From Protoeuglena noctilucae (lineage: Eukaryota): a stretch of DNA of 64,000 bases. Positions 2,006-64,000 of this stretch are shown here, in pieces. Where the stretch lies: assembly GCA_958009085.1 (NCBI GenBank), contig OY253674.1:434001-498000 (forward strand), in the 5' to 3' direction. The translations under genes and the position numbers were made by a program. The notes under the pieces are model-generated. The model worked only from the letters and a program-made list of their open reading frames with translations. It did no database searches and had not been told where the DNA came from. The stretch's first letter is position 1. Every line of letters starts with the position of its first letter.

Positions 2006-3673
2006 ATGGCGACGTCCGCCAAGGGCGGCGCAGCCCAAGATGCCAAGGGGGGGACTGTCCCGGCGCCTCCGCCGCCCGAAACAGAGGGTGAGGGGCAACC
2101 ACACATCGTCGTATGCGCCAGCGTGAAAGTGCGTGGCTGCTTGGGGCACAGGGCCTCGAGTTTAGGACCCTCTGCCCGCTCGACCGTCCTGTAGCCCCCG
2201 TCCCGGAGGACAACGCCGCTGCCGAGGCCCAGCCGCCCCCGCCGCCGGAGCTAGATGCGGTACCGAACCTTGCGGATGACCAGCTTCGGGAGTTCTGGGG
2301 CCTCCGCGGCAGCCTGGAGGAGTCGGCTGACATGCTGTCCAAAGCCCTGGGGTACCGGGACTATCGGGCGAGTGGCGACCGCTGCGAAGGCACCCGGGTC
2401 AGGTGCTTACTTGCTGGAATGCACGGCACGAATAGCCTCCGCCCCGCCCTCGCAGGTGGATGCCCAGCAGAGCATCCGCCTGGACTTCGCGATGTTCGTC
2501 CTGCAGTTCGCGCATGGGCATGCGCTGACGTGTCCCCAGACCCGCGCAGTGATGAAGGCGTCTCACGCGTTCCTGCACCGTATCCAGAGCGAACCGAACT
2601 TGGACGCCATCCAGGTGAATGACGCGCAAGGACGCTGGCTTACGCCTGTCGCCTGGCCATTCACAGTCTCTCCCAGCAGCTGGTTCGATCGACTCCATTT
2701 CCCCTCGCCGCAGGAGGACCTCAAGAACATGCTCATGCCGATGGTGAAGGCCGCCGTGTCGGCGGATGAAGGGTTCCTTCTTCCAGAGCAGCTCGGGGCA
2801 TTTGGGCGCTTCCTGGTGGATCTGGTGGTGAGGGCACCGGGCGTGCACGCAAGGCAGGTAGATGTCTAGATGCCGCTAGGCTTTTGGGTCGCGAGGCCGG
2901 CGCCGGTTCGCCCGCAGGTCAAGCATTTCCATCTGTGGCGGTTCGTCCTCACCATGGAGCAGGAGCACGACTACACGGGTGAGTGCGAGCGGGTGCAGCT
3001 GTGAGCCGAAGCAGTGCGTAATGGCAGAGTCCGAAAAGCGTTAGCATGCGCCCCTGCAGCCGAGGACATCACGGTGGAGACTCCCAACGCGCCTGTCGAG
3101 TTCGACAAAGTCGTCGTCACCGAGGAGCAGTGGTTCCGAGCGAAGGAGCAGCGCGTACAGGCCGAGGTGACGGCTCGCGACGCGTGCGGCTGCACGTGGA
3201 GGTGCTGCGGCGGCGTGCATGCCGCGGAGAGCTCGCCTTGCCTTGCCCCGCAGGAGGACCGGAAGAAGCGGGAGGTGCTTCTGGCACAGGAGAAAGCGAT
3301 GGAGCAGGACCGGTTGAAACACGAGGAGGAGAGGAAGCGAGCCGAGGAGCAAATTGAGCAGCTGAAGCAGGCGAAGGTATGTGTGTGCGCATGTGAAGCC
3401 TTGCGCCCGTTGGCACGGTGTCGCCAGTGACGCCGCTTGGCCACGCTTGACCACCTGCTGCTCTTCCCCACGCTGCAGCCGGCGTCTCTCGACGAGGCCG
3501 TGGAAATTCAGGTTCGGATACGCCTCGAGGAGGAGCGGCTGAAGCTCATCGCCGAGTTCCAGGCCAAGGAGGACGAGATACGCGAGGAGATCAAGGGCCT
3601 CGCTGCCAAGCTCGCGGCCTCGCTCAACCCGCCTCCCGCCGCACCGGCCGCGCCCCACACCAAGGAGAAGTAG
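2006..3673 (+). CDS. CFAP119/C1a-32 (CLAMP)/C8orf74-like flagellar protein with coiled-coil C-terminus
   Basis: The spliced product reads ...LSKALGYRDYR|VDAQQSIRLDFAMFVLQFA...FGRFLVDLV|VKHFHLWRFVL..., then an E/K-rich coil. Family assigned by motif recall. Confidence 0.55.
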
Positions 3674-4155
3674 CTTGCGATGGGTTTGCCCCTGTGTCTG
3701 TTTCGCCGTTTCAGCTGCCGGGGCGGAATCGTTCAACGATGTGCCAACTCCAGCCATGTTCAACCCGTGGTCCTCGTCGTTGTCGCGGCGGACATCGCCA
3801 GGCGCTACTGCACAGCCGGCAAAGTCTTGAAGTCTTCGTGAGCCTTAAAGGGGCCTAGAGGCATCGGACTGCTCTAATCGCTGTATCTGCGGCATGAAGT
3901 CCTAAGTCACTGCGTGGTCATCGGAGCCAGTTAGGCAGCCTGCCGAGTTTGTGTCCCCAAGGTGACGAGTTTTGACGCAATCGATGTTTGGCGAGCGCCG
4001 ATGTGGATGACGAGCCCTGCGGCGACAGGCGCGGCAAGGTTTAGACTTGCTGGCAGCCTCCGATGTTTTCTCTGGGGGCGGACGGGTCCGCGGCCTTGCA
4101 CGAGAGGCCTCCCAGCGTCCACGCCTTGCCTGCGCCGCAGGGGCGCGGAGGCGCG

Positions 4156-7100: not shown

Positions 7101-10100
7101 CCTCGTCTCCGTCCGCAGGTGCGGCCGCATCGGCGCTGGCCTGGCCTCTCACGTCATCCGCGACATGGCGCCGTGGAAGGCCGCGTGCAAGGCGCGGTAC
7201 ACGGCCCTGTCCTTCGACGTGACCTACTCGGCTGCCCCCGAGCTCACGCGCGCCCTGGCCACGTTGTCAGACTCCCTCGAGGCCCTCTGCGCCCACTACG
7301 ACCCCGTCACCCTCCGTGAGGTCCTTCGCGCCCTCCTCCCGACGCTCACTGTCGACATCTTCAACACAGGCGAGGCGATTATTAAGTGCAGTGGATCTTC
7401 GCGGCTGCGGGGGTGCTATCAGGCCCAAGAGCAACCTCCTGACTCGTCTGCAACACCTTGCTCACTGCATCACCTCCTTAAACCCCCCCGTCGAGGTGAA
7501 TCACAGTTCGATACCCTTGATAGCCGCTTACCCTCCTTTGATGTTCAGTGGTGACGGAGCACGAGTTCAGCTCGGCGGGTGCTGCCAACTACGAGTCGGA
7601 CGTGACGGCCATCGCCACCACGGCCCAGGCCAACCTGCCCGGCGCGTGGGGCTACATGCGCGAGCTGTGGGACGCAGCGGGGCTCCTCTGCGCACCCCTC
7701 TCCCAGGGACGCCAGGCCATCGCAATGTTGACGCAGGCAAGCGGTTGGGTTGCAACGGGGCCTGGGACTGGGCCTGGCAGTGTTTTATGTTCGCGCACTC
7801 TGTGTGCGCAATCGGTGCCCCCAAGTCCTTGACCATGGCAGTGCTTTCCGCTGTCGAATCTTTCTTGTTTCAACGTCGCTAGCGGGCGGCTCGGTAACAC
7901 TTGTTGCGATTGCCAGAAACAGCCCACGTGTCGGTCCGCGCAGGGCCTCAAGGACGCCGCTCCTCGGGAGCAGAAGGAGTTGTTGCAGTCGCTGGGAGTG
8001 GAGAGGCTGACCGTGGAGCAAGCCATTGCTGTCCTGTCTCAGAAGCTGGTGGAGTACGACGAGCAGGGAAACGAGGTGAGATGGGTGGGGATGTGTGCTG
8101 TTGTACGCGGTCTTTGTAGGCGGAGGGAGAGAGCGATGTGCCAATGATTGGGCTACGAAGCGACCGATAGACACCCATGCAGCGTGTTAGGGAAACAGAG
8201 CGTCATCATCGTCACGTGTCATCAACAATCAACAACACCCCTTAACTCTCCTTTCCGTCCGCAGCTTGAGCCCTCCCGGCCGCAACGGAGTGGCGTCCGT
8301 GGCGGACTCGGGGGGGCCAACGCCAGGACGGCCCAGGTGTTCATGCCACCGCCCAGCAGCGGGCGGCCGTCGTTGTCCACGCCTCGGAACTCCCAGGGGT
8401 GGCCGTCGGCACTCGAGGGTGCCGATCGCGCTCACACCCACACCCCGGCCCGACGGGGCCCCATTTCCGTCGATGAGGTGCGCGACGTCGCGAGTCGCGA
8501 TGGCAGCGCAGTCGCGGCGGCCGGCGGGGCGGACGCGGCGCTGGGGGACCTGGCTGTGAGTGCCGGGGCGTCGCAGGCCCTGGCGGAGTCGAATGGCATC
8601 CCGTCGCTGTCTCACTGGGACGGCACGGGCCAGTCGACGGCGTGGGGTGACGGGGAGGGTCAGGACGGGACTCAGTGGCAGGGTGCGGAGGGCGGAGCGT
8701 GGTCCGAGGCCGCGCAGGGCGCAGGGTGGTCGGAGGCCGGGGCAGACGCTGCGCCGGGGTGGGGCGGTGGGTGGGGTGGCGCTGACGGTGGGGTGGCGGA
8801 GGGTGGCGTGAACCCCGCGGGCAGCGTGCCTGCTACGGGGGTCTCATCTGTGGACGCTGGGTACGAGCACGACCCCGACTACGTCCGCGGTGCTTACCGG
8901 GACGATTCGAACCGAGACGAGGCCCCCCGGGATGGGGCGTATGCGGACGAGGGGTATGCAGATGGAACCTACCAAGATGGGGCATATGCAGATGGGACGT
9001 ACCAAGATGGGGCGTATCAGAATGGGGCATACCAAGAAGGGTCGTACCAGGAGGGTGCGTACCCAGCGGACGGTCCCATGAACGCGGCAGGGTGGTGGGG
9101 TGGCCAGAGTGGTGGCGTGGAGGCATACGGTGAAACGGGTGCGGAGGGCGGGGGCTGGGGTGCCGAGGGGTACGGTTACGCGCCAGAGGACGGGTATATG
9201 CCAGAGAATGGGGACGTGCAGGGCTGGGGTGCGGGACAGGACTCTCAGGGCTACGCTGCCGAGGGTTATGCAGCGGACATGGGGCCTGGGGATGTGGGAC
9301 AGGGCTGGGGTGCAGGGTACGCATCGGGCCAGTATGTCCAGCAGGAGGGGGGATGGGGTGCAGTTGGGGAGGAGGGTGGTGATGGGGCGGTTGCGGGAGG
9401 GTGGGGCATGCAGGAAGGGGAAGAAGGCGGTGCAGGGGAGTGGGGTGCGCAGGGAGGGGAGGAGGGAGGTGCCTGGGATGGTGGGGCTGGTGCGTGGGAC
9501 GGGGGTGGGGAGGTGGCGGACGTGGGCGGCGTGGCTGCGGACGATGGAGCAGCGGGCGAGGCGGGCATGGGCGACGCTGGTGGGGAAGTTGAGAGGAATG
9601 GGGCGGAAGAGGAGGGAGCGGGGGAGGGATGGGAAGGGGGAGAGGGAGGGGAGAAGGAGGGCGAGGGCCTGTCGCGGGGACACGTGACGCGTCGTGCGCA
9701 CTTCCCGACCAATGCCACTGTCCTGGGCAGCGACAACGCGTGGCAGGGGTCAGCGACGCCGCCTGAGTCGCCTGGGCCAGATGCGGATGAGTATGTTGAG
9801 GGGTATGGGGAGGATGGCTGGGCGGTCGATGAGCGTGACCCCGCGTGGGGCGATGGCACATGGAGTGGCGCTGGGGCCCAGGGCCACTCGCTGGGCGATG
9901 ATGGGGCGGATGGGGCGGGTCCATCGGGAGTGCAGGAGTGGGGTGGAGCGGGGGCTGAGGGTGGGGAGGTCGGGGAGGCGGTGGTGGGTGGCGCCAAGGG
10001 CATTGATGGGTATGGGGAGGGAGCTGGGGGCGGGAGTCGTGAGGGGGGTGGGGATAACGCTGCAGCGGCGCAGTGGGGTGCGGAAGCGGGGGCGGAGGGT

Positions 10101-13004
10101 GGCCAGGGTTGCGCAGCCGGGCAGTGGGGTGGCGAGGGAACAGCAGAGGGCGATGCTCCTCAATGGAGCGGGGAAGGGGCGACGGAGGGTGGGGAGGGTG
10201 CAGGTGTGCCTGCGTGGGGTGGAGAGGGCTGGGGCGAGGGCAAGCCTGAAGATCTGCCAGGCGCCGGGGATGGCGAAGTGGCTGCGGAAGGGTGGAACGG
10301 GTGGGCCCAGGGCGGTGCTGAGCAACAGGGTGCGGTGGGCTGGGGAGAGGGTGCGGCTGAGGAAGGGGAGGGGTGGGGTCAGGGCGGTGGTGGGGAGGAG
10401 GGTGCTGCGTGGGGTGATCATGCCCAGCAGGCGTGGGGTGGTGTGCAGATGGATGGGCAGTGGGGCGAGAGCCAGGGGTGGGCGCAGGGGCAGGAGGGTG
10501 GTGACGCGGTGGGTGGTGCTGGAATGGGGGACGCGGGTGATGGGGCGGCGGATGTGGGTGGATCGAATGACGACGCTGCTCGCACGGAGGCAGCACCCGA
10601 GTCTGCCGTCGCTGGCACGGATGGGCCCCACGAGGGTCATTCGGGTGGCCATGGCTGGGGCGACCGGGGTGACGCCGATGAGTATGGCGGTGAGGGGTAC
10701 GGCAATGACGATGGCATTGCCAAGGACCAGGGCGATGACCGGGTGCCGGGGGCAGGCGAGCGAAGAGCAGGGGCTGTCCCAGGAACAGTGGCAGGGCCAG
10801 GAGGGGCATGCCGAGCAGTGGGAGGGTGCGAATGGGTGGGGCGCGGCGACGGGGATGGCAGAAGGGTGGGGAGAGGAGAAGGACGGTGCGGAGGCTTCGG
10901 GGTTTGAAATGGGACGGGTGGAGACGCCGGAATGTTCGTGGGACACCCACAGGAGGCTGGTGGTTGGGGGCATGTGCCGGGGCGAAGGTCGTTTGGCGCG
11001 TCGAGCCACGCTGACAAGATGGCTCATCTGGAGTCTGTATTGGAGGATTCTGGGGAGGCGGCAGCTGCGAGTGAAGACGCGGGGGGGGCAGGGAAGGGTG
11101 CGGAGGTGGAGCAAGGGTGGGCGGGGGCTGGCGAGGGGTGGGCGGGGGCGGAGGGTGCGGGGGAGGGGCTTGGGTGGGGTGGAGGGGAGTCGGGGTGGAG
11201 TGCGGCAGAGCAGGGTTGGAAGGATGCGAGTGGGGATCAGGGGTGGGGGGAGGAGGCGAAGGGTGGGGACGGCGGAGCTGGGGAGGTGGGGGCGGAGGGG
11301 AGCGCAGGCGTCGCCAATGCTGCAGTGGAAAGTGCAGTGGAAGGCGAAGAGACAACCTGGCCCAATCACGTGGTTGGCGATGCCTCGACAGACACCCACC
11401 AGGCCCACCACCCCGCCCCGGACGCGCCATCCGCTGAGCACTCGCCCTCGGCCACCCACGCCACGCCACCTGCCGACCGTGGTTCCCCGCCCGCCCACGG
11501 CGCCGACGCCAAGTCCGCCAAGCACCCGCCGTCTCGGCGAGGGTCGGGCAAGCGCCACCCACCGCCGCCCCCGCCGCCGCCCCCGCGTGCAGGGAGCAAT
11601 GCGCCGTCCGAGCGTGCCAGCACGGGCGTGCCCTCTGCCGGGGCGTCGCCGGCGGGGCACCCCCCGGACCTCACGTACCGTGCCAACCCGGCCCCGGCTG
11701 GGGCTCTGGCCGGGGCTGCAGACCACACCGGCGATCCGGCGTGGGGTGGCTCTGTGTTGACGACCGCCGCCGCTGCCACGGGCCCCGAAGCGCATGCCGA
11801 GACGCGGCAGCTGAGCCGCGACGAGTCCAGCGGCCGCAGCCACGAGGCGTCGGGGTGGGGCGCCCCCCCTTCTGGCGGCGCTTCTGGCGTTGCTGGCATG
11901 CCAGACGGGGCGTGGCAGGCGCCGGGCGCGGCTCCCACTCGCGGCCCGGGGACGTCGCAGGGAGGCGTTTGGTCCCCGCCTCACGCCGGGAGCGAGTCTT
12001 CGTGGGGCGCTCCGGCCACTAACGCATGGGATGGACATGCATGGCACGCCGGCCCTGCCGCGACCACTGCCGACCCCGCCCGCACCTCACCCGGCCACGG
12101 CCACGCACCGCCGCACGCCGCGGGCCTCCCCGGCGCGTCCGTCCAGGGCCCGACCACCCGCATGCTCGTCCCGGACGTGCCGCCAGGCCCCGCGCCCACC
12201 TGCCCGGCGAGCGTGCCTCCAAGCGTGGCCCAGCCGTCCCTGCCGCTTACCACCTCTGGGAACCCCGTTCCCTCCCGGGGCTACTCGGCGGGTCACATTC
12301 ACGTTCCGTCGTCGCATTCGGGGACTCCCGTTCCCTCCCGGGGCCCTTCCGCCGGGCAGATTCACCTGCCTGCAGTCCCGCAGAGCCCCGCGCAGGGCGC
12401 GATGCAGGTGCCAATGCCGACGGCCGCCTCCGTGCACCAGCCGCAGTTTGCGCCGCACCAGGCGGTGGGTCCTATCGTGCCTAGCAGTCAAGGCACCTCT
12501 CCTGCAAGCGCCTCGGGCCAGCCCTTCTCGCCCCGCTCGAGCATGCAGGGCGCGCTGTCGCCCCGCATGGGCCGCCCCGCGCAGCTGGGCTACTCGGTGG
12601 GTGGCACCCCGGCCGGTGCCCTCCTGCCCGGGGCATCCCCGGGGCCAGGGATCATCCCGCCCGTGCAGCCGTTGCCCGCGCCTCGGCTCTTCATCCCTCA
12701 CGGGTCGACCACGTGGGGTGGGGGTGGTGTCCCAGACGCACCCGTCGCCCCGGCGGAGTCTGTCGCTCCCGGGGGTTTCAAGACTGGGAACCCCGATCTT
12801 GCAGCTGTGGGGGCGCAGCGCGGCGCCGCAGCAGCGGCGGGTGCCAACGCGGCTGAGCCTGGGCTGGCTGGCATGGGGACGGCAGGGGTGGGGTTAGGGT
12901 GGGGCATGGATGGGGGCCAGGAGGCCGGGTGGGGGACAGGAGACGACGCAGGGAGTGGGTGGGGCGGCGGCGGGGGGTGGGGCGGTGGAGGGTGGGGCTC
13001 GTGA
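4156..13004 (+). CDS. RINT1/TIP20 (MAG2-like) tethering subunit with a very long acidic Gly/Trp-rich and Pro-rich C-terminal extension
   Basis: RINT1/TIP20-like motifs are PDWAAEELVASLRSRLAFHF, VVTEHEFSSAGAANYESDV and LTVEQAIAVL. A phase-0 intron at 8076-8263 (GAG|GTGAGA...CCGCAG|CTT) joins the core to the low-complexity exon. The frame is disturbed at about 10750-10915. Confidence 0.65.
8931..9065 (+). repeat. Nine tandem 15-bp units encoding the pentapeptide DGAYA/DGTYQ/EGSYQ
   Basis: Units such as gatggggcgtatgcg, gatggaacctaccaa, gatggggcatatgca and gatgggacgtaccaa read directly from the sequence. Confidence 0.85.
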
Positions 13005-13106: not shown

Positions 13107-15048
13107 TTACGCCGTTTCTTGAGCTTCAACATGAATCTGCGCTGCCTTGAATGTCAATATGCTCATCAGCAAAATTGCCTCCTTTAAAATGGGAGCCTGG
13201 GCACTTGGGCCGGCGAATACTGCCGGGTTCGAATGCCCTGCGTGCGGTGCGGTTCGAGACACTTGCATCTTGCCTTCGCTCAACACGCTGCTGCTCGCAT
13301 GCAACCACGCTGCCGCCTGCGCGCAAGAGCTGCCGCTTGCATGCGAGGGCTGCAGCTCACCACGCGTCTGCGGAAGTCGGCGCAGTGCCCTTCGGCGAAG
13401 TACCGCTCCACCTCTGGGACGTGCTGCTGGCACGCCGCCACGCGCTCCTTGCTGAGCGGGTGCGTGCGCAGCAGCGCCGGCACGCGCTGCCCCGTCTTGC
13501 GCGCCATCTCCTCCTCCGCCCTGCGCACAGAGAGAGCGCCTGTTGTAAGTCTCAGATACAGAGAGCTATCCGTGACCCTGTGGCAGGGTCACGTGCCTTG
13601 GCATGGTCGATACATCACATCACGATGAGTGACTCTACCATAGAGTTAAATGGACGATGTTTCAAGAAACAATGCCATTTGGTTGCTCAACGAGCAACCA
13701 CTCACCTCCCCAGGCGCTCGAAGACGTGTGCCATGGCTTCTGGGTTGAAGCAGGCCCGCGACATGAGCTCCAGGCCGATGCGGTCCGCCTCGTGCTCGTT
13801 GTGCCGCGAGTTGGGCAGCGTGAACATCAGTTGGAAGAGGTTCGTCACGTCCACCCCGAAGGTCACTGCGCCCGTGGTGAAAAGGATAGGAAGCTCAAGC
13901 TGTGATGGGGTTACTTGACAGAGAGCGTCACGGGCACATGAGGATTCCAGGCGATGCTAAGACTGTCTTGGCTGACGAGCAGCACACGCGAGCACTCACG
14001 CATGGCGGCCAGCCCGACCAGCTGCAGTAACTGCGACCGAGTGAGGCTCTCCGCCACGTGGCGTGCGACGGCATGTCCAATCTGTGAACGCGGGCGGTGA
14101 GTGCAAAGTGGCGGGTGCATTTGTATCCGGGGGTCGATGGGCAGGCTGACTCGTGCCATGGCTGCACGAGCGACCAGGCGAGCGACAAGCACAGCACGCT
14201 CGCCTCGTGAGACAAAACCCCCGCGATGCCATCCACGTCCCTCACGAAGTCAATCAGACCGCTAAACACGACGACCTTGCCGCCGGGAAGCACGAAGGCG
14301 TTGACTGCGTATTAGAAAGAGTGCAGGGGCACCCATCACGCATCGTAAACGTGCTGAGGACTGCATCGAACACACGATATCAGAGAACATCTGGCATCTG
14401 TCGATGTCGTCGACACACACCTTGGTCCGACTTGACGACGTGGAACTCCCACTCCATGCCCTTGAGGTGCCCCTGGTCCCCACCGCCGTAGCCCTTGCCG
14501 GCCGCGATCGCGATGCGCGTCCCGACCTGGCGGACCAGCTTCGTGTACTCGTGGTTGCTGGGGAGGACCAGGCCTTTCGAAGCAAACTGGTCGAGCAGCT
14601 GGCGATACATGTAGGCCCCCAGCTGACGCTCCCAGCTCACGGGAAGCAGCACCATGTGCTTCCTGCGTCGCAAATACAATCGAGCAGCGTGAGCCGATGG
14701 CGCGATACGCCCTGCGAGTCGGTATTCGAGGCTTCCGGAGCGAAGAATCGCGACTCGCCTTGCCGTGAAGGGCACCGTCTCGCGATTGTTCCACCAGACG
14801 ACCCCGAAGCCGAGCCCCCCCACGGCTACCCCCCGCAGCCACGCATTCACTCGCTCCGCCGTCCAGTACGGACCACGCCCATCGAAGTGCGTGTATCCGT
14901 CCGCAGTGGTCCACATCGCCCGTCGCAGAACGACCGGGGACGGCACAAACGAAAGGGCATGCAGTCCCGGGCCGCTTAGGGGGCCTGGGGACCCCCTAAG
15001 TCCGGCATAGATCCGCCAAGCCCCTGCGAGAGCCCGTCTGGCGCTCAT
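13107..15048 (-). CDS. OMA1: Mitochondrial metalloendopeptidase, peptidase M48 (OMA1-like)
   Basis: Motifs: ETVPFTARKH, WEFHVV, NAFVLPGGKVVVFSGLI, spliced HE|IGH zinc motif, LPNSRHNEHEADRIG and LLRTHP. Confidence 0.88.
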
Positions 15049-15587: not shown

Positions 15588-18500
15588 ATGGCTCCGACCT
15601 CCCGAACCTCCGTTGCTACATGCGCCCTGCGCGAGGACGACACCGACATCGCGGCTCCCACCGACTGGGGCGACCTTGCGACCTTGGTCCGGCGCATGGT
15701 GTGTTGCCGCTCCGCGCCCTGTTCTCGTTTTCGTCCCTCCCCTTGCTAACACGCGCGTGTAATGAATCATCGCCGCGCCGCTCCCCGCCCGCAGCCGTCC
15801 CACGAGTTCTCAAGTCTGCTGGTGGACGTCGTCCCTGTCCTTCACGGAAAGAAGGCGCCGTTCTTGACGCCTCCCGCCGCCAAAAGCTCGCAAGACACTG
15901 CTTCTGCCGTGACCTGGTGCACTCAGCTGAGCTTGGACCGCTGGCACTGCCTTGTGCGTCTCTCGCAAGCGTGGCCCGGGCCCATCTCGGCGGCCGTGCA
16001 CGTGCCCTGGCCTCTGGGCACCGCGGCAGCGGCCGAGGTGGAGTGTCAGCTGGCCTCCGCCGTCCAATCCCTCGGCCCCGACCACAGGTGAGTGCTGCAA
16101 CTGGCGGTGTGCCATGCCACGTCCCCATGCATCCATCGGTGCGTGCATGGTCGTGGGTTAGACAAGCGTGCTCCCGTCGCCGTCCCCAGTGTCACGGTGT
16201 CCACCCTCTACGCGCCTGCGTGCAAGGCAGGGCGCCCCGCGGCCCCCATCCTCGGCGTTGCCGCCCGCACGGCCGAGGACTCCGACAGCGAAACGCCAGA
16301 GGTGCTGATGCGGCTGGCGGGCGCGGAGAGGCAGGGCGAGGAAGGGCCGCCGGACGAGTCCACGTACGCGGCGTTCTACCCCATCAACGCCCTGCGCAAC
16401 GTGGCCATCGCCCAGGCCAGGACGGCCATGGTGGCGGTGGCCGACGCCGACATGGTGCCCAGTGAGGGCCTGCAGGAGGCCATCGTGGCGGCACTGGAGG
16501 CATGGGACGCTGGAGAGGGTCGGTCAGGGGCTGACGGTGGGTTCCCGGTCGCTGTGGTGCCGACCTTCGAGACGGGTCAGGTCACAGAGCATGAAGACCG
16601 TCGATCGCAACAGGACGCCAGCACCTCTGCCCGTGGCCTGGAGGGCTACCCCCGCACGCGAGAGGAGCTGAGGGCGAGCGGGGCGTGCATGTTCCACTGT
16701 GGGCCATCGGTAGCGGACTCGGGGGCTTTGGACCAAGGCACGTGGTTTAAAGCAAAGGGCGCCATTTTCGAGGTGCCGTACGCCGAAGGCTTTGAGCCAC
16801 TCATGGCGGGTAGGAAGGACGAGATGCCCAGGTGACACCGACGCTGACGGTCTGGGCAGGTGCGTGCTGGGTCTGGTTGTAATCAAATCCGCCACCCGCA
16901 CCTTGCAGATTTGCGGACGACTTTCGTGGCTACGGTTTGAACAAGGTGCAGCAGGCGTGGCACGTGGCCAGCACAGGGGGCCGCTTCCTGGCAGTGACAG
17001 GTGGCTTCGCAGTCACAAGGCCCCATGCAAGGTCGGGTGCCTTCCGGCGTGTCTTTGGGGCGGGGGCGGATCCAAGGAACAAGCTCCGCATCGCTGCGCT
17101 GTACGAGCGGTGGAAGATGGAGACGGCGGCGTTGGGACCGGTAGCAGGTGGGGTGCGATACTCGATGGATGAGGCGACGATGCGGCTGGCTGGGAGCGGG
17201 CGGACAGACGCCCCTGCACTACTGGCCCTTGCACTGTCACCGTTACTCGCACCCGCAGTGGCGCGTCTGAGCCGGATGGACGACAGCACTTCAGCGCAGC
17301 TGCTGTCATCGCTGCCCCAGGCGTCGCTCGACGTCGAGCCGGCGTGCCTCACTCGCGCCGCATGTCCGCCCGTGAGCGCCGACTGGGACGTCCGAGAGGC
17401 CTCGGGCGCAGCGGAGGACGCCACGCGACGAAGCGAGTGAGGGGCCAAGTGATCGTTCTCTGACAGTTAGATGCGACACATGAATGCGTGGGTGCACGGG
17501 GTCTTTCCAGCTCTTGTGTCACAAGAAATGTGCCCAAGCTGCACATCTTTTACCTCAACTACTGTTCCTACCGATTCCGTCCTCAGGTACATACTGTACA
17601 ATTCCGAATGGCGGTCGGCCCTCGACCGGGCCTTCCTGGGGGGCCAAGGCGCGCCGCCTGTCTCGTTCGTGACGCACTGGTGAGTGTTGGCGGCGTGAGA
17701 CATGGGTCTCTGAGCTTGTAGACGCAGCAGACGGAGTGTTCTAGAGATAGGCCAGTCGCCGGGGGAGCTTGATGTGGTGATTCTCTGCTTGCCAATCTGC
17801 CCATGCCACGCCACGGCAGGCCACCCATGCTCTGGACTGTGATGCGCTTGACATGGCCCAAGTGACCGCATCGACAACTGCCTTACCCTTCAGTGAGCCA
17901 TCGACCACTTTGCCCAGCTGCTCGGCCGACCTCAGCATCGACCGCACCGCCCACCCCGCAGCCCGGTGGCGTCCTTCCCTACGGTGGCGGCCCGCCTCGC
18001 TTCCCAATGGGATGGCAGCGCCTCCATCGCCGTCTTCGTCCCGGCTCCCAAGTCCTCCCCCGAGGGAAGGGCCATGGCGCGGTGGCTGAGGGAGCAGTTC
18101 GCGCATCTGCCCGACGACCACCGCATCCGCGCCACGCCCGTGTACGGCGACCGCTTTGCGGAGGTGAGGGTCGCATGCTGTGAAAGCGTGCCGAGTGGTG
18201 CACCCAAGCTTGGCAGAGTGACGAATGATGTGGACTGGACGTCATGGGTATCGATGTCTTGGACCGCTTCCCTCACGCAGGCGGGGATGCGTGCGCTGGC
18301 TGCGATGGGCCTGGACAGCATTTCGTCGCCATCGCGGCAGCACACCTACGCAGACGCCTACCCCGCCGGGGCCCTGCTCAACGCTGCGATCGCCGCGGCG
18401 GAGTCTGACGCTGTGCTGGTGGCGGACGCGTCTCTCCGGCCCTGTGCGGGGCTGGCGGGCACCCTGGCTGCGTCTCTGGGAGCAGCCGCGCAGGCTGGCG

Positions 18501-19420
18501 AGGGGCAGCCTGCGGGGTCCGAGGCGGGCGCTGGGGCGGGACTGGGCGCGTCGCTGGGCGGGGCGGCAGACGTGGAGGACGCCAAGAGTCGTTTGGAGAG
18601 GGCGCTGCGGGGGACGAGCGCCGACGCGTCGCCGTCCACGACGGCGCGGGTGTGCCGGGTGGCGCTGGTCCCGATCATTGCGGTGGAGGGCGGCTGCGAG
18701 CCGACGACCAAGGCGGGAGCGGTGGGGCTCGTGCGCAAGCACATCCAAGCACAGCGGGGCGGGGCGCTCAGGCGAGTGCGGCAGTGTTGCAGTGCAATCC
18801 CTGACTGGCGCTGTATGTCGTCTCCTCTGTGTGTCGTCTCGTCTCGCCTGGTCGGCACGTGAGCGGTGGCCCCCCTGCAGCGCAGCCAATCGCAAGGCCA
18901 TCCCGTGATGCGCAGGTGGCCCTTCCGAGGCGACTCCCTTCTGGCCCGGTGGGCCAATCGGTCTCGATCGGACTTCCCGGCACGCGCCCCGGACCTCTTC
19001 GACGCGGTGGCGATCGCTGGCCCGCGCAGCTGCCTCCCGAGGTTTGACGAGAGGTTCAGGGGCAGTGCCGGCGTCAGCCGGGCGCAGTTCGCGCGGCATG
19101 TGATGGACTCGGGGGTGCCTGTCGACGTGTGCGGCTCTGGATTTCTGACGAGCAGCGCGTGGGACGCGGAGCGGTGAGGCACACATTACTTGCCTCGGGC
19201 AGCGGCGCTGCGGATGATGAATGCAGCACCTGCTTCGCTGCGAGGTGTCTTACCCAATTCAGCGGCTCTCATGCGTTTTCTGGGTGACTCTTGCTCATGC
19301 AGGGATGTATGGGACGAGATCGACCCGTCCGGGACGCGGGACGTGGCATTGGCCGCTCTCTACAGAGACTTCACGACAGCGCTGGCCGTGGCGCGTGCGA
19401 CCTGTCGTGAGCTGTCGTGA
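15588..19420 (+). CDS. Glycosyltransferase family 49 (LARGE/B4GAT1-like) protein with two tandem GT49-like domains
   Basis: Domain 1 has TQLSLDR...WPGPISAAV, FYPINALRNVA...VADAD, FEP and FRGYGLNK. Domain 2 has VTHC...WDGSASIAV, YPAGALLNAA...LVADAS and PRFDERFRG. The exons join in frame; the start codon is approximate. Confidence 0.75.
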
Positions 19421-19544
19421 CGCGCCGGGTGTCTTAGGAGCCTGGCTGCAGGCGTGCTGCGTCACTCGCCAGTGGCACCTTCAACGCAGCACGCGCGCGG
19501 CAATGACAGCACTTTCGCCAACCTGCTCGTCTGGCAGGCGACCC

Positions 19545-20685
19545 TCAGAAGAGGGCGTGCTTGACGGTGTCCACCGCCCATGCGACCCCTCGCACCAGGG
19601 AAGGCAGCCGGTCGAGGCGGGAGGCACCCGGCGGCACCACCAGCACCCGGACGCGCTGCCGGCCCCACTCCAAGGCGTCCCTGTGGCTGCCGTAGTACAG
19701 ATCGACCCTCGTCGGCCTGCGTGAAACGTCAGGGCAGGAACGTCGCACACCACGGCCCGCCCGATGGGCATGAATTGCGTGCCGGGCGCGCAACCAGGCG
19801 TGTCCCGCACCCCTTGATGTCGCCTCCCGTGTCCTCGACGCGGCACCAGCCGTGCCCTTTGACAAACATCTGCGTCCCGAAGGGGTACGTGCCTGGGTCG
19901 GCCGCCACTGTGCCCTGCTGGCCCAGTAACCTCCAAGGCAGCACCGCCCGCCGCAGCAGCCGCCCGGGGTCGGACCACGTGCTCGGGTGCAGGATGCCTC
20001 GACGTGCCTGCCGGGGCACCACCTGCGGCGCAGGGCAGGGACATCCTCACCATCAGTAACTAATGGTATGAGTTCATAATAACTTTGTGAGTAGTCCACG
20101 TGCCGGTGCTCTCCGGTCCCTTCCCCATGAGCTCTGGCCTCATATCGTGTGACCGGGGCGTTCCCCACCTCCGTGGCTGTCAGCCCGAGGTAGGGCTCTC
20201 CCCGCAGCGGCGTGTCTGACCAGAAGCGGTCGAAGATTCGGTACTTGCGGCTAGGGCGGAACCCGGAGGGCTTGGAGCGCTTGAGCTGGACAAAGGGCCA
20301 CTGGGGGCACGAAAGGGCGGCGTGCTGCGGTCGGCCTTGCGTCCCTTTTAGCAGGCGACCAGCACGGTCGCCTCTCGCGTTCGCAAATGCCGCGCTTTCA
20401 ACGGCCGGCCCCTGCAGCGGCCGAGGCGGCGGCCCTACGGTGCCCACGCCCCGCCCGGCGTCAAGGGGGGGTCACCTGGGGAAGCAGCGCTAGGTGGTGC
20501 CCTGGGAGCGACACGCCCCATTCCCAGTTGCAGCAATGCCCGCAGCTGCAGTATGCAGTGCACTCCAGCTCCCGCCGAAACGAGTGCGGCCGGGGAGCCA
20601 TGGTCACGCGAAGATCCGACAATGCGTCCAGCGAGGGCCTGTCTGGGCCGGCAGCGACCTGCGGGGCAGCGCGGATGTTCCGCAT
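19545..20685 (-). CDS. 3D (Asp-Asp-Asp) domain protein, 4 exons
   Basis: Motifs: ECTAYCSCGHCC, GLTAT, GTVAADPGTYPFGTQMFVKGHGWCRVEDTGGDIKG|PTRVDLYYGSHRDALEWGRQ. The start is at 20685 or at the downstream MAPRP ATG. Confidence 0.85.
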
Positions 20686-20832
20686 TAAGCATCATCGCGC
20701 TATCGAGGGCCATCTGGAGCGGGAAGAAGCCCCGATCGCCGGCAAAGGGTGGCATTCCAGCGGCAACCCAGCCTCGTAAACGCCACGCGACGTGCGGGGG
20801 CTCACGGACCTGGACGCGGTGCGGAGCGCGAC

Positions 20833-21426
20833 TTAGTGGTGGCTCGCGTGGCTCCTGTGGACGCCGAGAATGTTGGAGTTCCAGTACTTGGACTTCTCGC
20901 GGAGCCCCACGGTGCCCTGGGTCAGACGCCAGTAGAGGATGCCAATGGTGCCGAACCCTGGGAGAGGGAGCAGTGAGGAGACCGTGAGAAGGCTGGCAGG
21001 GCCCGGCGCCCCGCCATCGCGCCCCGGCTGGCGTGCCCAGGCGCGCGTGACATCGCTGGCTCCCCGAGGCCAGCCAGGCGCTCCTGCACCTCGCGTCGCG
21101 GCCCACCGCACCCTCGTGACATGACGCGCACGGGGAGGGTGCGGACGCGGCGCGCGGGGGACCGGGCGCCCTGCCAGCGGGCGCGAAGTTTCGTCGCGCG
21201 GCTCACCGAGGATGAAGTGGCGCATGCGGAAAGCTTCAGGCAGCCAGAAGTTCAGGCCCCCCTTGGCCCACGGGTGGACGGGCGCCGTGCCCCTCGCGAG
21301 CCCGACGGGCAGGAGGGTCTTGATCTGCACGCGGGGCTTCCCGGACGCGTCCTTCGCAACGGACGTCTCGAACTTGAAGTCCCAGGGCGCCGCCTCGACC
21401 GTCTTCTTCAAGGTCTGGCCGGACAT
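20833..21426 (-). CDS. Small single-TM protein resembling the plant mitochondrial ATP synthase 6 kDa (i/j) subunit
   Basis: Two exons (intron 21206-20958). HPW...FWLPE...HFILGFGTIGILYWRLTQG...KSKY resembles the recalled plant pattern DPW..F.RE...PFL.GFA.TG.LI.KLT.G...NSKF. Confidence 0.5.
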   Translation of the reverse strand: MSGQTLKKTVEAAPWDFKFETSVAKDASGKPRVQIKTLLPVGLARGTAPVHPWAKGGLNFWLPEAFRMRHFILGEPRDETSRPLAGRPVPRAPRPHPPRARHVTRVRWAATRGAGAPGWPRGASDVTRAWARQPGRDGGAPGPASLLTVSSLLPLPGFGTIGILYWRLTQGTVGLREKSKYWNSNILGVHRSHASHH

Positions 21427-21698
21427 GGCTGGCCCGGAGCTTACCCCGCCCCGCCGCTGAAGCGAGTAGCCTTGATGATCGAGCGCGACTGCCGAATGGG
21501 GCGCACGCGGCCTGGTGACGAGAACGCGAGCGACACGGGCTTTCTGATTTCTGCCAGAGACGTGGAGTCCGTGTCGATCCATCCGCCCGTTTGGCGGTGC
21601 GGTCCGCATCCGTGGCTCGAAGCAAGGCCAGGGCACCGGGGCATCGCGTGCCCTGAGCCCGCAGATGCCTTGGCAGGGCCTCGCGTGCACGCGCGAAG

Positions 21699-22888
21699 AT
21701 GGGCAAGAAGAAAGGCGACGCCGACGCGCCTTTGGGCATGACGCCCGAGCAGGCTGCCGAGGCTGCTGATGCGCAGGTGACGCCGCGGTGCATTCACGCT
21801 GTCGTCGCGGGGCTGCGTCGGCAGCCGAGGCTCTTCACAGTTCCTGCCTCGCAGGACCTGCTGAGACACGCGGTCAGGTCCGGCGTGCTGTCGGAGACGC
21901 GTAGGCTCCCTGCGAAGGGGGTGGCTCTCCCGCCCGGCGACCACGTGGTCGCGCAGAGCCACCGGGACATCATGAAGAAGCCCGCCCAACGCAAGCACCG
22001 CTACCTGGTGTTGCTCTGCGCCCAGATAGCGCCCGTCGCAGCCGGCAAGATCGGCTCCCTGGCCAAGCTGGACACGCGCAACCCAGGTGCGGACGCAGGC
22101 CTGTGCATGCGACATGCGATGGGCGTGGGGCCAAACGTGACGTCGCATGGGTCCCTCCCTTTGACCCCTCTCCGCACCTCCAGTCATGTACCTGGACTTC
22201 GAGGCCGGCCGCTTGAAGCTCCTGGGGACGCTCGCCTTCCCCAAAGCGCGGTACCTCGTGCTGAGGCCAGGGCCGAACGAGCACGTGCTGTGTGAAGACG
22301 TGTTTGAGTCAGTCATCGGTGCGTGGCAGTGCAGGAGCAACAGCCCTGGCGTCAGTTTGTGTTGTTAGCTCTGCGGGAGTGCATGTGGTGCAATGTGGCT
22401 TGTGTCTGCAGTCTTCTCGCGTGCCGTTTGGGTCGGGAGCAAGGAGGACAACCCGGACGAAGACCCGCTCGACATGCCGGCGACCTTCGGGGACATCGCG
22501 CACACGGGCGCGGACTTTGGTGGCGGCGCGGGGAAAGGCCCGACGGTGATGACGGCGGAGGGCGGGGACGACACGGGGATGTCGGATGGGCAAGGGTAAG
22601 TGCATGTAACGTGGAATGGTGACTGGCGTGTCTCTCTGAAAAACGCACCGTAGATGGCGACCATTACAAAGGACTCGACGCTGTGATTGCAGGGACGGCG
22701 ACAGCGGCAGCGACGGGGAGGGGGACGGGGGCGGCGGTGAGGCCGTCGCGCAGTGGGGGGGCCGTCGGTCCAGGCGGCCCAAGGTGTCCTACGCGGACGA
22801 GGAGGAGTCGGAGGAGGAAGCGAGCGATGCTGGCGAGGACGACGCCGGGTCGGAGAGCGAATGGGAGCAGACGTCGGGGGAGGAATAA
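21699..22888 (+). CDS. RHL1: DNA-binding protein RHL1 (topoisomerase VI accessory subunit)
   Basis: DIMKKPAQRKHRYL...GKIGSLAKLDTRNP|VMYLDFEAGRLKLLGT...LCEDVFE...VFSRAVWVGSKEDNP, followed by an acidic tail. Confidence 0.88.
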
Positions 22889-23050
22889 GTTTAAGTAACT
22901 GCGGGGAGGGTTTAGGGGTTTCAATGAAACCCAACATGAAACGGTCTTCCAGGGACGTCCGTCAGAAAAATGCATGCGCGCGGATTGCGGGTGGCCGGGT
23001 TCGGTCCCGGATTCGTTGCGCATCCCCCTGCGCGGGGGCTGGCTCGTCTG

Positions 23051-30459: not shown

Positions 30460-30559
30460 GAGGGACCAGCCACCCCATTCAAGATGGTCTTTGAATGAAC
30501 AACACGACGTTACTGTTGACTTCGATATCTCACGCTCAAAGTGCAGCCGTTTGGTACTG

Positions 30560-49819: not shown

Positions 49820-51644
49820 ATGGAGGACTCCCATGAGGGGAGGCAGCACTGCCGGTTCTATGAAAATGAGTACCCCAAGATCGACGAGGTCGTGATGGTG
49901 GAGGTGAGGCCGGCACCCAGGAGCCTTTCGACCGCGGCGCCCTCGGGATCGGGGCTGCAGGGCAGGTGGCGTCGCCTGGATGCCGTTCCTGCACATTAGG
50001 TCTCGGCGCTGGCGCGGGGCTCAGGCACGCGTGCCTCGCAAATCAGTGCGGGGGGCAGCGCGCAGCCCACGCTGCGTGGCCCGCGCCAGTCGCTGCCGTT
50101 CTGGCTCGGCTGTCTGTCCTCGTGGCATGAGGACATCTTGGCCCAGCATTTGAGCCTGCGAGCTGCCGGGCTTGCCCCGGGATGGTGTCGCCTGGGCCCT
50201 GCCGGGCGAGGGGGCCGGCAGCTCGACAATATGGACGAGATGCCGCGCCGAGAGCGCCGGCGCGGTCTCCTTGGCGACTGGTTGGCTTAAGGACTTGTCG
50301 CTGCGGTCATTTCTCGCGGGCTTCGGGGTGCGGGAGAGCTGTGGCGGGTGGCTGACTGCCTAGACCGGCGTGCGCGTGCAGGTCAAGTCGATCGCGGAGA
50401 TGGGGGCGTACGTGTCACTGCTGGAGTACGACAACAAGGAGGGCATGATTCTGCTCAGCGAGCTCTCGCGAAGGTGGGCGCTGGGACGCGCCCGGTGCTG
50501 CTGTAGGAGAGCAGCGGAAGGGCACGCCAACACCCCCGCGCCCGCGTCCCCGCGCGCAGGCGGATCCGCTCCATCGCCAAGCTGATCAAGGTGGGCCGGG
50601 TCGAGCCCGTCATGGTGCTGCGTGTGGACGAGGAGAAGGGGTACATCGACCTGTCCAAGCGCCGCGTGTCGCCCGAGGAGGCCATGGTGGCGGAGGAGCG
50701 GTACGCCAAGTCCCGCATGGTGCACACCATTGTCTCCCACGTCGCCTACCTCCTTAAGCGCAACCTGCTGGAGCTCAACCAGAAGCTCACGTGGCCGCTC
50801 TACCGCAAGTACGGCCACGCCTACGACGCCTTCCGCCAGGCGGCGTCCGACCCCGTGGCGGTCTTTGGGGAGTTCAACCTCGACCCGGAGCTGCAGGCGA
50901 GGCTGTGGGAGAAGGGGGCTCATGGGCGGCAACGCGTCGCTCGCCTTGGCCAGTCACGGTCACGGTCGTGGCGGTTGCGCGCCTGCAGGACCGGTTGGAG
51001 AGGGACATCAAGCAGAGGCTGAAACCGAATCCGCACAAGGTCCGGGCGGACGTGGAGATGAAGTGCTACTCGTTTGCGGGGGTCCAGGTGGGCACCTCAG
51101 CAGTGCAGCGGTGAAGTTGTGGCATGCCGGGATGGCTTTGGGGGGAACGCTGGTGATCGTCAATGAACGCGCCACGCAGGCCATTCGGGAAGCCATGCGG
51201 GCGGCGGAGGCGTGCTCGACGGAGGAGTGTAAGGTGGACATCAAGCTCATCGCAGCACCGCTCTACGTGCTGACGACCATCACGCACAACAAGAAGGAGG
51301 GGATTGACGCGCTCGCTCGGGCCGTCGACGCTGCGGCGGCGGCCATCAGCAAGCCGGAGTTCAAGGGGGAGCTGGTCGTGAAGGACAAGCCCAGGTGTGT
51401 GACGGGCGCTGTCGGGGGCTGTGGCCCTCAGCTGCGCAGTCCGGTGCGTCCCCACGAGCGTGCGCGATCGATATCCGATCCCGGCTGCCGCAGGGTGGTG
51501 TCGGCGGAGGACGACCGGCTGCTGGCGGAGAAGATGGCTGAGCTGGAGCTGGCCAACCAGGAGGTGGATGGGGACGCGTCCAATTCGGACGAGGGGGAGG
51601 AGGAGGGCATGGCTTTCAACGAGAACGCGGACAAGATCGAGTAA
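49820..51644 (+). CDS. EIF2S1: Eukaryotic translation initiation factor 2 alpha subunit
   Basis: Motifs: [47 protein letters not shown] and [11 protein letters not shown]. Confidence 0.97.
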
Positions 51645-51954: not shown

Positions 51955-53202
51955 ATGGCCGACAAGACGGTGACCATCCGGACGAGGAAGTTCCTCACGA
52001 ACCGCCTGCTACAGCGCAAGCAGTTCGTCCTCGATGTCCTGCACCCTGGGCGCCCCAACGTGTCCAAGAAGGAGCTCAAGGAGCGCCTGCAGGTGCGCGG
52101 GGGGTGCCAGGGGCCGGCTGGGAGCTCCGAGCTCCGGGCGAGCGCAGTCATTGCGACCAGGACATGATTGGCGGGCTAGCCGGGGTGCCTGGGGCGCTGG
52201 GAGCGTCGGCAGAGTCAGGGCCGGCCGGAGCGGACCCCTGCGCGCGCCTGGGCCCGCGTCCTCGCGGCAGCGCGTGCTATTGCTTCCCATCCGCCGATTC
52301 GGGGATGTGGCTTCCCTCCTCCATGCCCTGGCGGGCCTGGGCGCCGGGTTGGGGAGCGCTTTCGCGTCGCGTGGGCGCACCCGGGCGCTGCCTCTCCCGC
52401 CGATGCCGTTTTCCGTCGAAGGGGTTTGCGACATGGGTCTGGGCGCGGGCCTGGATCCCACGCGCTCGCCCACGAGCTGCGTGACGGCTCGGGACCCGTG
52501 CGGCCCCGTCAAGAGGCCGACGCCCCAGTGCCTCGCGGTGGCCGTTGCAGAGATGTGCTCGCCCCTCGTGTCCCAGCCGGGGGGCGGCGGCGGTGCGCTG
52601 GCGCCTCGCAGTGGGTCCCAGCGCCGGCCTGCCGTGCGCCAGCCCTCGTGTGGCCCGGGGGGCTGATGCGGACGCTGGCGCGCGCTCCTGATGTTAGTTT
52701 CTAGCCTCCTCCATCCTTGCGCAGCGTGTGCGACCGCTCCGCGCGCTCCCCGGCCCGCAGAAGATGTACGACGTCAAGGACCTGAACCAGATCATGGTTT
52801 TCGGCATGCGCACGGCGTTCGGTGGGGGCAAGTCGACCGGGTTCGGCCTCATCTACGACACGGTCAAGTCGTTCAAGGACTTCGAGCCCAAGTACCGCCA
52901 GGCTCGCCAGGTGCCCGCACGGCGCGCTGCCTGAATAACAGAGGAGGCGCCGCCTCGCTTGGCTGTCTGTGGTATTTGTGGCTTCTCGTTAGGACAAGGG
53001 CGTTGCGTGGTCACTTGGCACTCCGCATTCGGGGCGGGGCGGCGGGCGTGCTGGATGTGCGCGGCCCGCCCTCACGTGCGGCCCTTTCTCCGTCTCGCAG
53101 GGGCTGCTCAAGATCGACAAGAAGTCCCGGAAGCAGCTTAAGGAGAGGAAGAACAAGGACAAGTCGAAGCGGGGCACGGGCAACAAGAAGAAGTCTGGTT
53201 AA
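51955..53202 (+). CDS. RPS24: 40S ribosomal protein S24 (eS24), 3 exons
   Basis: Motifs: [39 protein letters not shown] and [10 protein letters not shown]. Confidence 0.97.
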
Positions 53203-61937: not shown

Positions 61938-62561
61938 TTAGACCTTGTTGTTGGTCACCTTCCCGGCCTTCTCTGTGACCTTCGACGTCTTGTCGACCCC
62001 CTTCCGCGCCACGTCGTTCATCGTCTGCAGCGCCGGCGGCTCCGTAACACCGCTCCCTGCGCGGGAAGGCACGAGCGCCGCTTGACGGGGCTACGGGAGC
62101 TCCTCCAGACTTTCATCTCTGCAAAACACCGTCACTGCGTCCTCACCCGAGCACGGCGTCGCGGCCCCGACTTGGTTGCTGAGCTGGATCATAGCACAGC
62201 AGGGGCAGAACATTAACGCGAGGATGTCGATGCATGTGTTTCCCGCGATGCCGTACTTGGCGCGCGTCTTGGCCCGCATGCGGATGACGTAGCAGCAAGT
62301 CGTCATGGAGCACGCGCTCAGGCAGCAAGGCACGAGCTGGGTAGAGCAGGTCGTCCCATCAATCTTGGCGAACGTGTGAAGCCCCTGCACGATGTTGACG
62401 TACGGCAAGGACCACGCCAAGCAGATGCCGATGTCCGCGCAGCACCAGAACAGGCTGTGCTTCCACGCGCCCCCTGCGATAAGGGGCGGGGGCGGGCAGC
62501 GCTAACCTATCGCCACCTTTGAACGGCGATGAAAGCTTATCGAAGCCACCTTGCGACGCAT
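61938..62561 (-). CDS. PLAC8-family cysteine-rich protein
   Basis: Motifs: WKHSLFWCCADIGIC, RAKTRAKYGIAG and FCPCCAMIQ. Confidence 0.88.
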
Positions 62562-62931
62562 CAGGAACAGCGATCGCGCTAAAATGATGTATATCACGCG
62601 CTGAGAGTAACATCAAGCCGCTGGTCGCTCCGCGTGAAACGCGAGGGGTGAGATTCAGTTCAGCGCACAGGGCTGCCCCGCCCGCAGCGCCAGGCACCTG
62701 TGGTGGTATGACACGGCTCCCGGCAGCACCCACGGCAGTTCTCGACCCAGACGTCGACGCCGCGGCTGGCGTCGAACGGCGTCTCGCAGAGATATTTGCT
62801 GCACGAAGGCGCCATGGCTGTTTATGCAACTCGACGGGGCGGTGGCCCTTTCTTAGCCTCCGTTTCCCCTGAGAGGTTCAAGAAACAGACATCTGGTCCG
62901 CTACAACGGATCCATGGCTAAAAAGGAGGTG

Positions 62932-62970
62932 AAAGGGGGGGTAAAAGGGGGGTAAGGGGGGGGTAAAGGG
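62932..62970 (+). repeat. Short degenerate (TA2-4 G3-8) G-tract repeat
   Basis: The intergenic sequence reads aaaggggggg taaaagggggg taagggggggg taaaggg. Confidence 0.7.
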
Positions 62971-63092
62971 TCAGGTAGGCCCCACCCTGCTCTGTCGGAA
63001 CCAAACGTGCGCCAGCACGCTTGAGTCATGCCATGAAACTCATCTGGTAAACCGATGGAACGGAGGAGCGCAGTCAGTCTAGCTACTACATG

Positions 63093-64000
63093 CTACATAC
63101 AAGGCGTGGGCGTGGCCTGCTGCTCCTGGCTGCGCGCCACGCTCGTCTTGAGGATCTCTTCGCAGTTGGACTTGAAAAGAGCCTCTCGGTCCACCGCAGC
63201 CTTGATCTGGCGGGCCCGCTCGTCCTCCGACAGCTGCGCATTGCCCTGCAGGAGGCGGCGTGCTGTGTTGGTCAACTCAACAGCAACGGCTTATTGACAG
63301 AGACACCCGCTCCCCGGGCCTTTGCATTCCGCCCGCCTCGCCTTGATGTACGCGAGGAGGTCCTGGGACCACATGGAGTAGGTGCGCCGGAGGTTGCTGA
63401 CCAGCGTCACCATCTCGGGGGTGACTTTGAGCATCGTGCGCAGCAGGGGCTGCAGGATGGCCTCCATGAATGACATCTGCGGGGAAGCGACGCGTCTCAA
63501 AGGGATCTGGGGATGAACGTCGGGCTCTGTGCCAGCGCCTGACAATCGCTCGCTCGGCCAGCTGCCACGGGCGCTAAGCAGTACAGCGAGCAGACCCTGC
63601 CCATCGCGAGCGACAGGGTGCGTTCGACCCCCGGCTTTTTCTGCAACTGACCTGGGAGTCCGGCACGACCACCCGGGTCTTGTCGCACATGGCTGTGACG
63701 GTGAGTCCCATTTCGGACTCCTGGTCGCCCTGGCGGAAGAACTCCGTCATCACCCTCTGCGACCACAATCACCGACACATCGCAAATATGACAGGTGATA
63801 CACGCTCGGTCACAAGTCTCCGCAACGCTGAGGGCGATCGGGCCGACGGCGATGCCGCAGCTGCAGCTACGCGCTAGCAGCCCTCGCCTCGCCCCAGAGT
63901 CGCGCCACGTCGGGGGGCTTCATCTGCGCGCCCACGTCGGCGATGTGGAGCTGCGGGACAGGAAAGGCGCGGAGTTGAGACATCGAGCAGGGACGTGCTC
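63093..64000 (-). CDS. 3',5'-cyclic nucleotide phosphodiesterase, C-terminal part (gene continues beyond the window)
   Basis: LHIADVG...WGE|RVMTEFFRQGDQE...MCDK...SQ|MSFM matches the end of the class I PDE catalytic domain. Confidence 0.9.

Follow-up and report, generated by a model that had tools for sequence, protein, structure and literature searches.

Frequent GC-AG introns in an intron-dense, G+C-rich 64 kb window of the Protoeuglena noctilucae genome

The stretch analysed here (the window) comprises 64,000 nt of Protoeuglena noctilucae contig OY253674.1 (assembly GCA_958009085.1, positions 434,001 to 498,000) and contains numerous introns that start with GC at the 5' splice site (donor) and end with AG at the 3' splice site (acceptor). 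The G+C content is 64-71% over the entire window. A two-strand Viterbi gene finder, trained on RNA-confirmed introns and then self-trained, returned 22 gene models with about 140 introns, i.e. approximately 6 introns per predicted gene, and a coding third-position GC (GC3) of 0.83. Pfam searches with single exons identified genes for an M48 (OMA1-like) peptidase, an HhH-GPD glycosylase, an STN-like protein kinase, RFC2/4, an OTU protease, CPSF73, a sirtuin, a DnaJ protein, eIF2-alpha, RPS24, an L7Ae-family protein, a class I phosphodiesterase (PDE) and a PLAC8 protein. The gene finder fuses CPSF73 with the sirtuin (36242-41924, minus strand) and the phosphodiesterase with PLAC8 (61938-63983, minus strand), which are separate genes by their Pfam domains, and its intron limit of 600 nt caused it to miss a 668-nt intron in RPS24. 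The best matches of the predicted RFC2 protein are chlorophyte (a Tetraselmis cluster with 72% identity and Pedinophyceae with 69%), and the only named relative of the sirtuin is from Trebouxia. On these matches, the source is most likely a marine green alga of chlorophyte type.

The first-pass annotation of this DNA had listed 16 GC donors among very roughly 100 introns. GC is indeed present at all 16 positions, which by itself is trivial in DNA of this composition, and the denominator was too low, as the count is about 140. As splice sites, two of the listed positions were confirmed by RNA (18772 and 23969) and nine by homology or profile alignment, and the remaining five fared less well, as detailed below. 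RNA joints were searched for in 18500-38499 using the RNA runs X1, X2 and X4 and the DNA run X5; X1-X4 are marine metatranscriptomes from one study. Between 42 and 55% of the 31-mers of 23000-32999 are present in X1-X4 and all of them in the DNA runs, a pattern expected of spliced transcripts from an intron-rich, gene-dense region. The search found 53 joints, 15 of which were listed, and each listed joint was slid through its ambiguity range to test alternative GT-AG placement. Twelve of the 15 can only be GT-AG and three only GC-AG, and none of these joints is present in X5. Relative to a 1% baseline, three GC-AG joints in 15 correspond to a binomial p of 4e-4 (95% confidence interval 4-48%), which bears out the earlier statement that GC donors lie far above the norm of about 1%. 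All 15 RNA-confirmed introns have CAG acceptors and lengths of 94-249 nt.

The three GC-AG introns confirmed by RNA are all on the plus strand. Intron 18772-18915 (cag/GCGAGT..GCGCAG) is skipped by RNA contigs of X1, X2 and X4 and this joint is absent from X5, intron 23165-23259 (cag/GCGCGG..ATGCAG) lies in the HhH-GPD glycosylase gene, and intron 23969-24128 is bounded by cag/GCGAGT and TGGCAG, the latter two being likewise supported by RNA contigs of X1, X2 and X4. Site 23165 is a 17th GC donor, absent from both the first-pass list and the gene finder output.

Further junctions were fixed with a spliced protein-to-genome aligner, in which the donor could be any dinucleotide (free donor) and the acceptor had to be AG; the joints at 26818, 27533, 27796, 28922, 29279 and 37474 lie outside the 15 listed RNA joints. 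The RFC2/4 gene contains two GC-AG introns on the plus strand, one of phase 1 at 28922-29002 (aag/GCGAGG, AVSRLQ/VIAEQ) and one at 29279-29403 (aag/GCGACG, KMFAQSK/VTVP), which were chosen with a free donor by 108 and 116 of 120 homologues, respectively. The alignment runs without gaps through both junctions, and a model limited to GT donors was worse in all 120 homologues (mean score 916 vs 965). In the eIF2-alpha gene, positions 2-40 of the Pfam profile EIF_2_alpha match the upstream exon up to its last residue but one, and positions 43-74 match the downstream exon starting at its second residue, thereby placing a GC-AG intron at 50897-50988 (plus strand, cag/GCGAGG), which the gene finder kept at every GC prior. 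The M48 peptidase gene on the minus strand contains a GC-AG intron at 14082-14203 (gag/GCGAGC..TTCACAG). Positions 37-72 of the Peptidase_M48 profile end on the last residue of exon 14204-14302 (HE), and positions 73-98 start at residue 1 of exon 14001-14081 (IGH), so that the intron from 14203 to 14082 divides the HE/IGH zinc motif. The GT alternative would yield HEAS..IGH; the gene finder has the donor of this intron right and its acceptor (truly 14082) wrong.

Two GC-AG introns were identified in the STN-like kinase gene on the minus strand, using as relatives the metagenome contigs L001, L003 and L004, which are intron-less, represent one taxon and share 53% identity with the gene. All three contigs support intron 26724-26818 (atg/GCGAGT) with a free donor and the phase 2 intron 27456-27533 (tcg/GCGAGT) without gaps. 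The gene finder had instead called a GC donor at 27584, which was overruled by all three contigs choosing 27533, and L005, another candidate relative from the metagenome scan, proved to be an unrelated bacterial regulator. The kinase gene of the related G+C-rich taxon (L001-L004) lacks introns where 24938-27800 (minus strand) contains at least eight; intron density is sharply different between these two green-algal lineages. In addition, fragments of numerous unrelated contigs from every run pile up on a short stretch (26378-26429) of the exon encoding the kinase catalytic loop, where depth spikes and loose ends abound; this is a conserved kinase motif common to other organisms and not a feature of the locus.

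The sirtuin gene on the minus strand also contains two GC-AG introns, examined with four sirtuin proteins from two clusters. Intron 37214-37289 (gag/GCACGT) was recovered by all four with a free donor. This GC donor, unlike its nearest GT alternative (37274), agrees with an RNA piece that ends at 37211 under the rule that ambiguous bases are placed leftward, which reproduces nine reported RNA piece ends. Intron 37392-37474 (gag/GCGCGT, GIPTFTE/KNGIY) was recovered by four of four proteins when the donor was GT or GC, and by one of four with a free donor, the other three moving 3 nt onto a CG donor; restricting the aligner to GT costs 46-65 score units and inserts 3-5 residues. An RNA contig with a loose end at 37709 was also observed within the fused CPSF73-sirtuin model.

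Of 25 PDE representatives, 17 recovered intron 63757-63887 (minus strand, gag/GCGAGG) of the class I phosphodiesterase gene when the donor was free (two were displaced by 2 nt and six fell short of the upstream exon), and 19 did so with GT or GC donors. The joined sequence LHIADVGAQMKPPDVARLWGE/RVMTEFFRQGD (ARLWGE/RVMTEFFRQGD) aligns without gaps to PDE4-like proteins, and positions 175-209 of the Pfam profile PDEase_I begin at residue 1 of the exon downstream of this intron. Thus, the conserved motifs HE/IGH, FAQSK/VT and WGE/RVMTEF are divided by GC introns as originally read, each according to profile or homologue alignment. Across the tested sites, GT-only alignments lose 9-69 score units and open gaps in conserved motifs. 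In the PDB, the upstream PDE exon and the M48 read-through stretch matched at chance level only, and a database search for the organism's own spliced proteins returned matches of at most 90% identity for the RFC exon and two matches of at most 41% for the sirtuin exon.

The remaining five listed sites are less certain. Three of them are probable GC-AG introns called by the gene finder, which kept each of them at a GC prior of 1%. Two are located in a RINT1/TIP1-like gene on the plus strand, at 7370-7548 (cag/GCGAGG), where a GT alternative at 7391 would add seven codons, and at 7737-7943 (cag/GCAAGC), where residues 2-58 of the 62 encoded by the upstream exon match RINT1_TIP1 positions 419-475. 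The third, at 14663-14758 (minus strand, aag/GCGAGT), is 96 nt long, in frame and open. The search with the M48 exon returned one match of 100%, the metagenome-contig open reading frame P0123, which over 14383-15048 (minus strand) is identical but for two residues. It is an unspliced read-through of the 96-nt intron and therefore evidence neither way; its near-identity implies that a close strain of the organism is present in metagenomes, and that prokaryote-style calling of open reading frames has placed intron-containing 'proteins' of this organism in databases. The site at 2368 is ambiguous, since GC donor 2368 (plus strand, cgg/GCGAGT, intron 2368-2455) and GT donor 2398 (GTCAGG) share the same acceptor and score equally well (112.0 for the GC model vs 112.6 for the GT model, which has 10 additional in-frame codons); neither homologue nor RNA covers it. 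The listed donor at 27796 (minus strand, aag/GCGAGC) falls where the 5' part of the kinase gene is unconserved and homologue alignments are noise; it was not predicted by the gene finder and is unsupported. Pfam searches at E <= 10 with the exons around 2368, 7370 and 14758 gave no match.

Twelve verified GC donors (three by RNA and nine by homology or profile) thus form a floor among the approximately 140 introns of the window. The gene finder assigns GC donors to 26 of 141 introns at a GC prior of 20% and to 17 of 140 at a prior of 1%, and the 17-18% GC share it reaches is inflated by at least four false calls. In addition to 27584, these are 20847, where RNA shows a GT donor at 20809, and 52138 and 52601, both within RPS24, which really has a single 668-nt GT-AG intron at 52093-52760. 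The listed RNA joints, with three of 15, are the sole unbiased sample of the GC share. Taken together, we estimate that 9-20% of the approximately 140 introns in the window have GC donors, which is 10-20 times the usual share of about 1%; on the RNA evidence, the share within this one 64 kb window is above 1-2%.

The verified GC donors (n = 12) have G at -1 in 12 of 12, G or A at +3 in 12 of 12, G at +5 in 11 of 12 and A at +4 in 9 of 12 cases, the last compared with 10 of 23 verified GT donors. Scored over seven positions of the U1-complementary consensus, GC donors average 5.33 and GT donors 4.74 (one-sided Mann-Whitney p = 0.051). Most verified GC donors read [CA]AG/GCGAG[TG], and the local consensus of donors is G/GYG[ACG]G. 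GCGACG, GCGCGT and GCACGT had been singled out as weak donors; these and GCGCGG are real exceptions backed by RNA or homology, but they match the loose local consensus, to which GC donors as a group conform no less closely than GT donors do, and equally loose verified GT donors occur in the window (GTGCGT, GTGCGC, GTGGGC, GTCCGT and GTGACC). These donors are weak only in comparison with the animal and plant consensus, and C at +2 appears to be compensated elsewhere in the donor, as in other eukaryotes. With G at -1, a purine at +3, G at +5 and a CAG acceptor following a pyrimidine- or C-rich tract, the introns would fit the U2 type as judged from their sequence, and the U12-like TATCC was found in none of the donor sequences examined (0 of 12 verified GC donors).

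Several further observations concern the genes surrounding these introns. A long open frame at 8148-13004 (plus strand) has a G-over-C skew of 0.32 and a low-complexity repeat rich in G, A, W, E and Y (GAYADGTYQDGAYQNGAYQEGSY); it gave no Pfam match, and the gene finder fuses it to the RINT1-like gene via doubtful introns of 45-50 nt. No other intron in the window comes near the RPS24 intron (plus strand) in length. Small nucleolar RNAs are often hosted in introns of ribosomal protein genes; this intron gave no Rfam match at E <= 0.1. Furthermore, single RNA contigs bridge the 3' ends of three convergent gene pairs, at 19400-19720 (glycosyltransferase-like and 3D-domain genes), 30270-30860 (RFC2 and OTU) and 35865-36455 (VWA-like and sirtuin genes), indicating 3' untranslated regions that abut or overlap, although contigs cannot tell single transcripts.

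High shares of GC-AG introns have been reported for several other algae. Iwata and Gotoh (2011; PMC3033335) report 39.6% for Aureococcus anophagefferens, 22.2% for Micromonas pusilla and 7.7% for Chlorella sp., compared with an average of 1.3% across 61 species, and they tie these "extraordinarily abundant" introns to G+C-rich species and term their cause an enigma. The U1 5' 11-mer is described there as canonical in all three algae examined, with modifications or small nuclear ribonucleoprotein (snRNP) proteins suggested as the cause. The window shares with these algae a G+C-rich genome, the retention of AG acceptors and a GC share approximately ten times above that average, but differs in being intron-dense, at approximately 6 introns per predicted gene. 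For M. pusilla CCMP1545, likewise a marine green alga with a G+C content of about 65%, 25.6% GC donors are reported, the share being 43.5% within introner elements as against 9.7% for regular introns; there, GC donors emerged only with RNA evidence and had been missed by predictors limited to GT-AG (van Baren et al., 2016; PMC4815162). In contrast to M. pusilla, in which 79% of the GC donors are in D-IE1, the window is without intron families and its intron density is several-fold higher.

More distant cases include Emiliania huxleyi, for which about 56-64% GC donors are reported (Feldmesser et al., 2014; PMC4028052). This alga also has a G+C content of 65% and an invariant AG acceptor, and its GC donors were attributed to genomic G+C; however, GC is the majority donor there, near the neutral expectation, whereas it is a minority of 9-20% here, with T favoured at +2. 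Shares similar to that in the window are described for the pelagophytes Aureococcus (14-17%) and Pelagomonas calceolata (about 14%) and attributed to high G+C (bioRxiv 10.1101/2024.10.30.620910), but these are intron-poor stramenopiles (0.19-0.92 introns per gene), while the best protein matches of the window are chlorophyte. Genome papers describe Chloropicon and Pseudoscourfieldia as poor in introns. In animals and plants, GC-AG introns are reported to make up about 1%, to be of U2 type and to offset C at +2 by a good match elsewhere (PMC3167603, PMC3033335), and the consensus there is GTRAGT instead of the local GYG[ACG]G.

We consider it likely that the introns in the window are ordinary U2-type introns with C in place of T at +2, handled by a standard spliceosome under G+C pressure. 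Strong pressure towards G+C would keep turning T at +2 into C, which would be the sole donor change that a standard spliceosome tolerates, given G at -1, +1, +3 and +5. GC donors would then accumulate to a mutation-selection balance, and a change in small nuclear RNA (snRNA) sequence would be unnecessary. This explanation is supported by RNA that is cut exactly at GC...AG and by conserved proteins that align without gaps across the junctions. In intron interiors, C/(C+T) is 0.60-0.64, and the 9-20% of C at +2 is far under this neutral expectation of about 60%, which implies that T is still selected at this position.

Several points weigh against this explanation. Micromonas RCC299 has a G+C content of 64% and is reported to have only 1.5-2.7% GC donors (PMC4815162, PMC3033335), and its 2.7% was taken by Iwata and Gotoh (PMC3033335) to mean that G+C alone is no explanation. 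Given this low share, G+C content alone is insufficient and a lineage-specific factor must exist. The closer agreement of GC donors with the consensus is marginal (p = 0.051, 12 vs 23 donors), and the verified set is biased by the choice of sites. Furthermore, GC calls of the gene finder are false at no fewer than four sites, and the RNA joints seen are 15 of 53, all from RNA runs of one study.

One candidate for such a factor, which we regard as possible and clearly less probable than G+C pressure acting on a standard spliceosome, is a spliceosome with lowered discrimination at +2, in which the snRNAs would be canonical and a U1 snRNP or catalytic-core protein, or a base modification of an snRNA, would relax the requirement for T (a changed U1 5' end being less likely still). 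Sister species of Micromonas with equal G+C content differ approximately ten-fold in GC donors, and the same explanation was proposed by Iwata and Gotoh (PMC3033335); in the window, positions +4 and +6 are loose in GT donors too. However, much of the excess in M. pusilla is in introner elements (43.5% GC compared with 9.7% in regular introns; PMC4815162), so that transposition history accounts in part for the difference between the species. The earlier reading had invoked a relaxed 5' splice site, and its descriptive part holds, as C at +2 is accepted here much more frequently than in the majority of eukaryotes.

The cause suggested with it, a variant U1 or U6 snRNA to which GC and GT donors would be nearly alike, for example through a U1 5' end pairing with C at +2, is improbable. 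Such a variant could account for GC donors being 10-20 times more common than usual and for the poor +4 or +5 positions of GCGACG, GCACGT, GCGCGT and GCGCGG, and the failure of G+C content alone to explain the trait in Micromonas also speaks for it. GT donors nevertheless remain the large majority, with the GC share far under the neutral value, and GC donors are, if anything, nearer to the consensus than GT donors, a pattern to be expected if the site is still weakened by C at +2. By analogy, the U1 5' 11-mer reported as canonical (AUACUUACCUG) in Aureococcus and M. pusilla (PMC3033335) would argue in the same direction. Searches of the 64 kb window for snRNAs gave no Rfam match at the gathering threshold or at E <= 0.1.

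An origin of the GC donors from a family of recently copied introns with GC 5' ends, as in the introner elements that account for 79% of the GC donors in M. pusilla (PMC4815162), is very improbable here, since an all-against-all blastn comparison of 140 curated introns yielded two pairs of chance-like matches of 17-24 nt and no family, and GC and GT introns are alike in length (median 95.5 vs 111.5 nt). Equally implausible is an artefact of manual reconstruction in which neighbouring GT donors are really used, which the equally good in-frame GT donor 2398 at site 2368 and the false gene finder calls (20847, 27584, 52138, 52601) would favour, but which RNA or homology rules out at 12 sites.

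The abundant GC-AG introns in the window add a further example to a pattern already published for G+C-rich marine algae and do not represent a new kind of splicing, and the main value of the finding is a caution for gene annotation. A predictor limited to GT-AG would get at least one intron wrong in over half of the genes, given about 6 introns in each and a GC share of about 15%, and annotation of this kind would break the M48 zinc motif, the RFC2 clamp-loader core, the sirtuin, eIF2-alpha and the phosphodiesterase. The window also adds an intron-rich green-algal case, free of introner elements within its 64 kb, to the short list of GC-AG-rich algae, and this case helps to distinguish the effect of G+C pressure from that of transposon history. 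Why some G+C-rich algae gain GC-AG introns and sister species of equal G+C content do not has been described as an enigma since 2011 (PMC3033335). If lowered discrimination at +2 were the true explanation, the regular, non-repetitive introns of this organism would offer a clean natural system for the puzzle of GC-AG accumulation.

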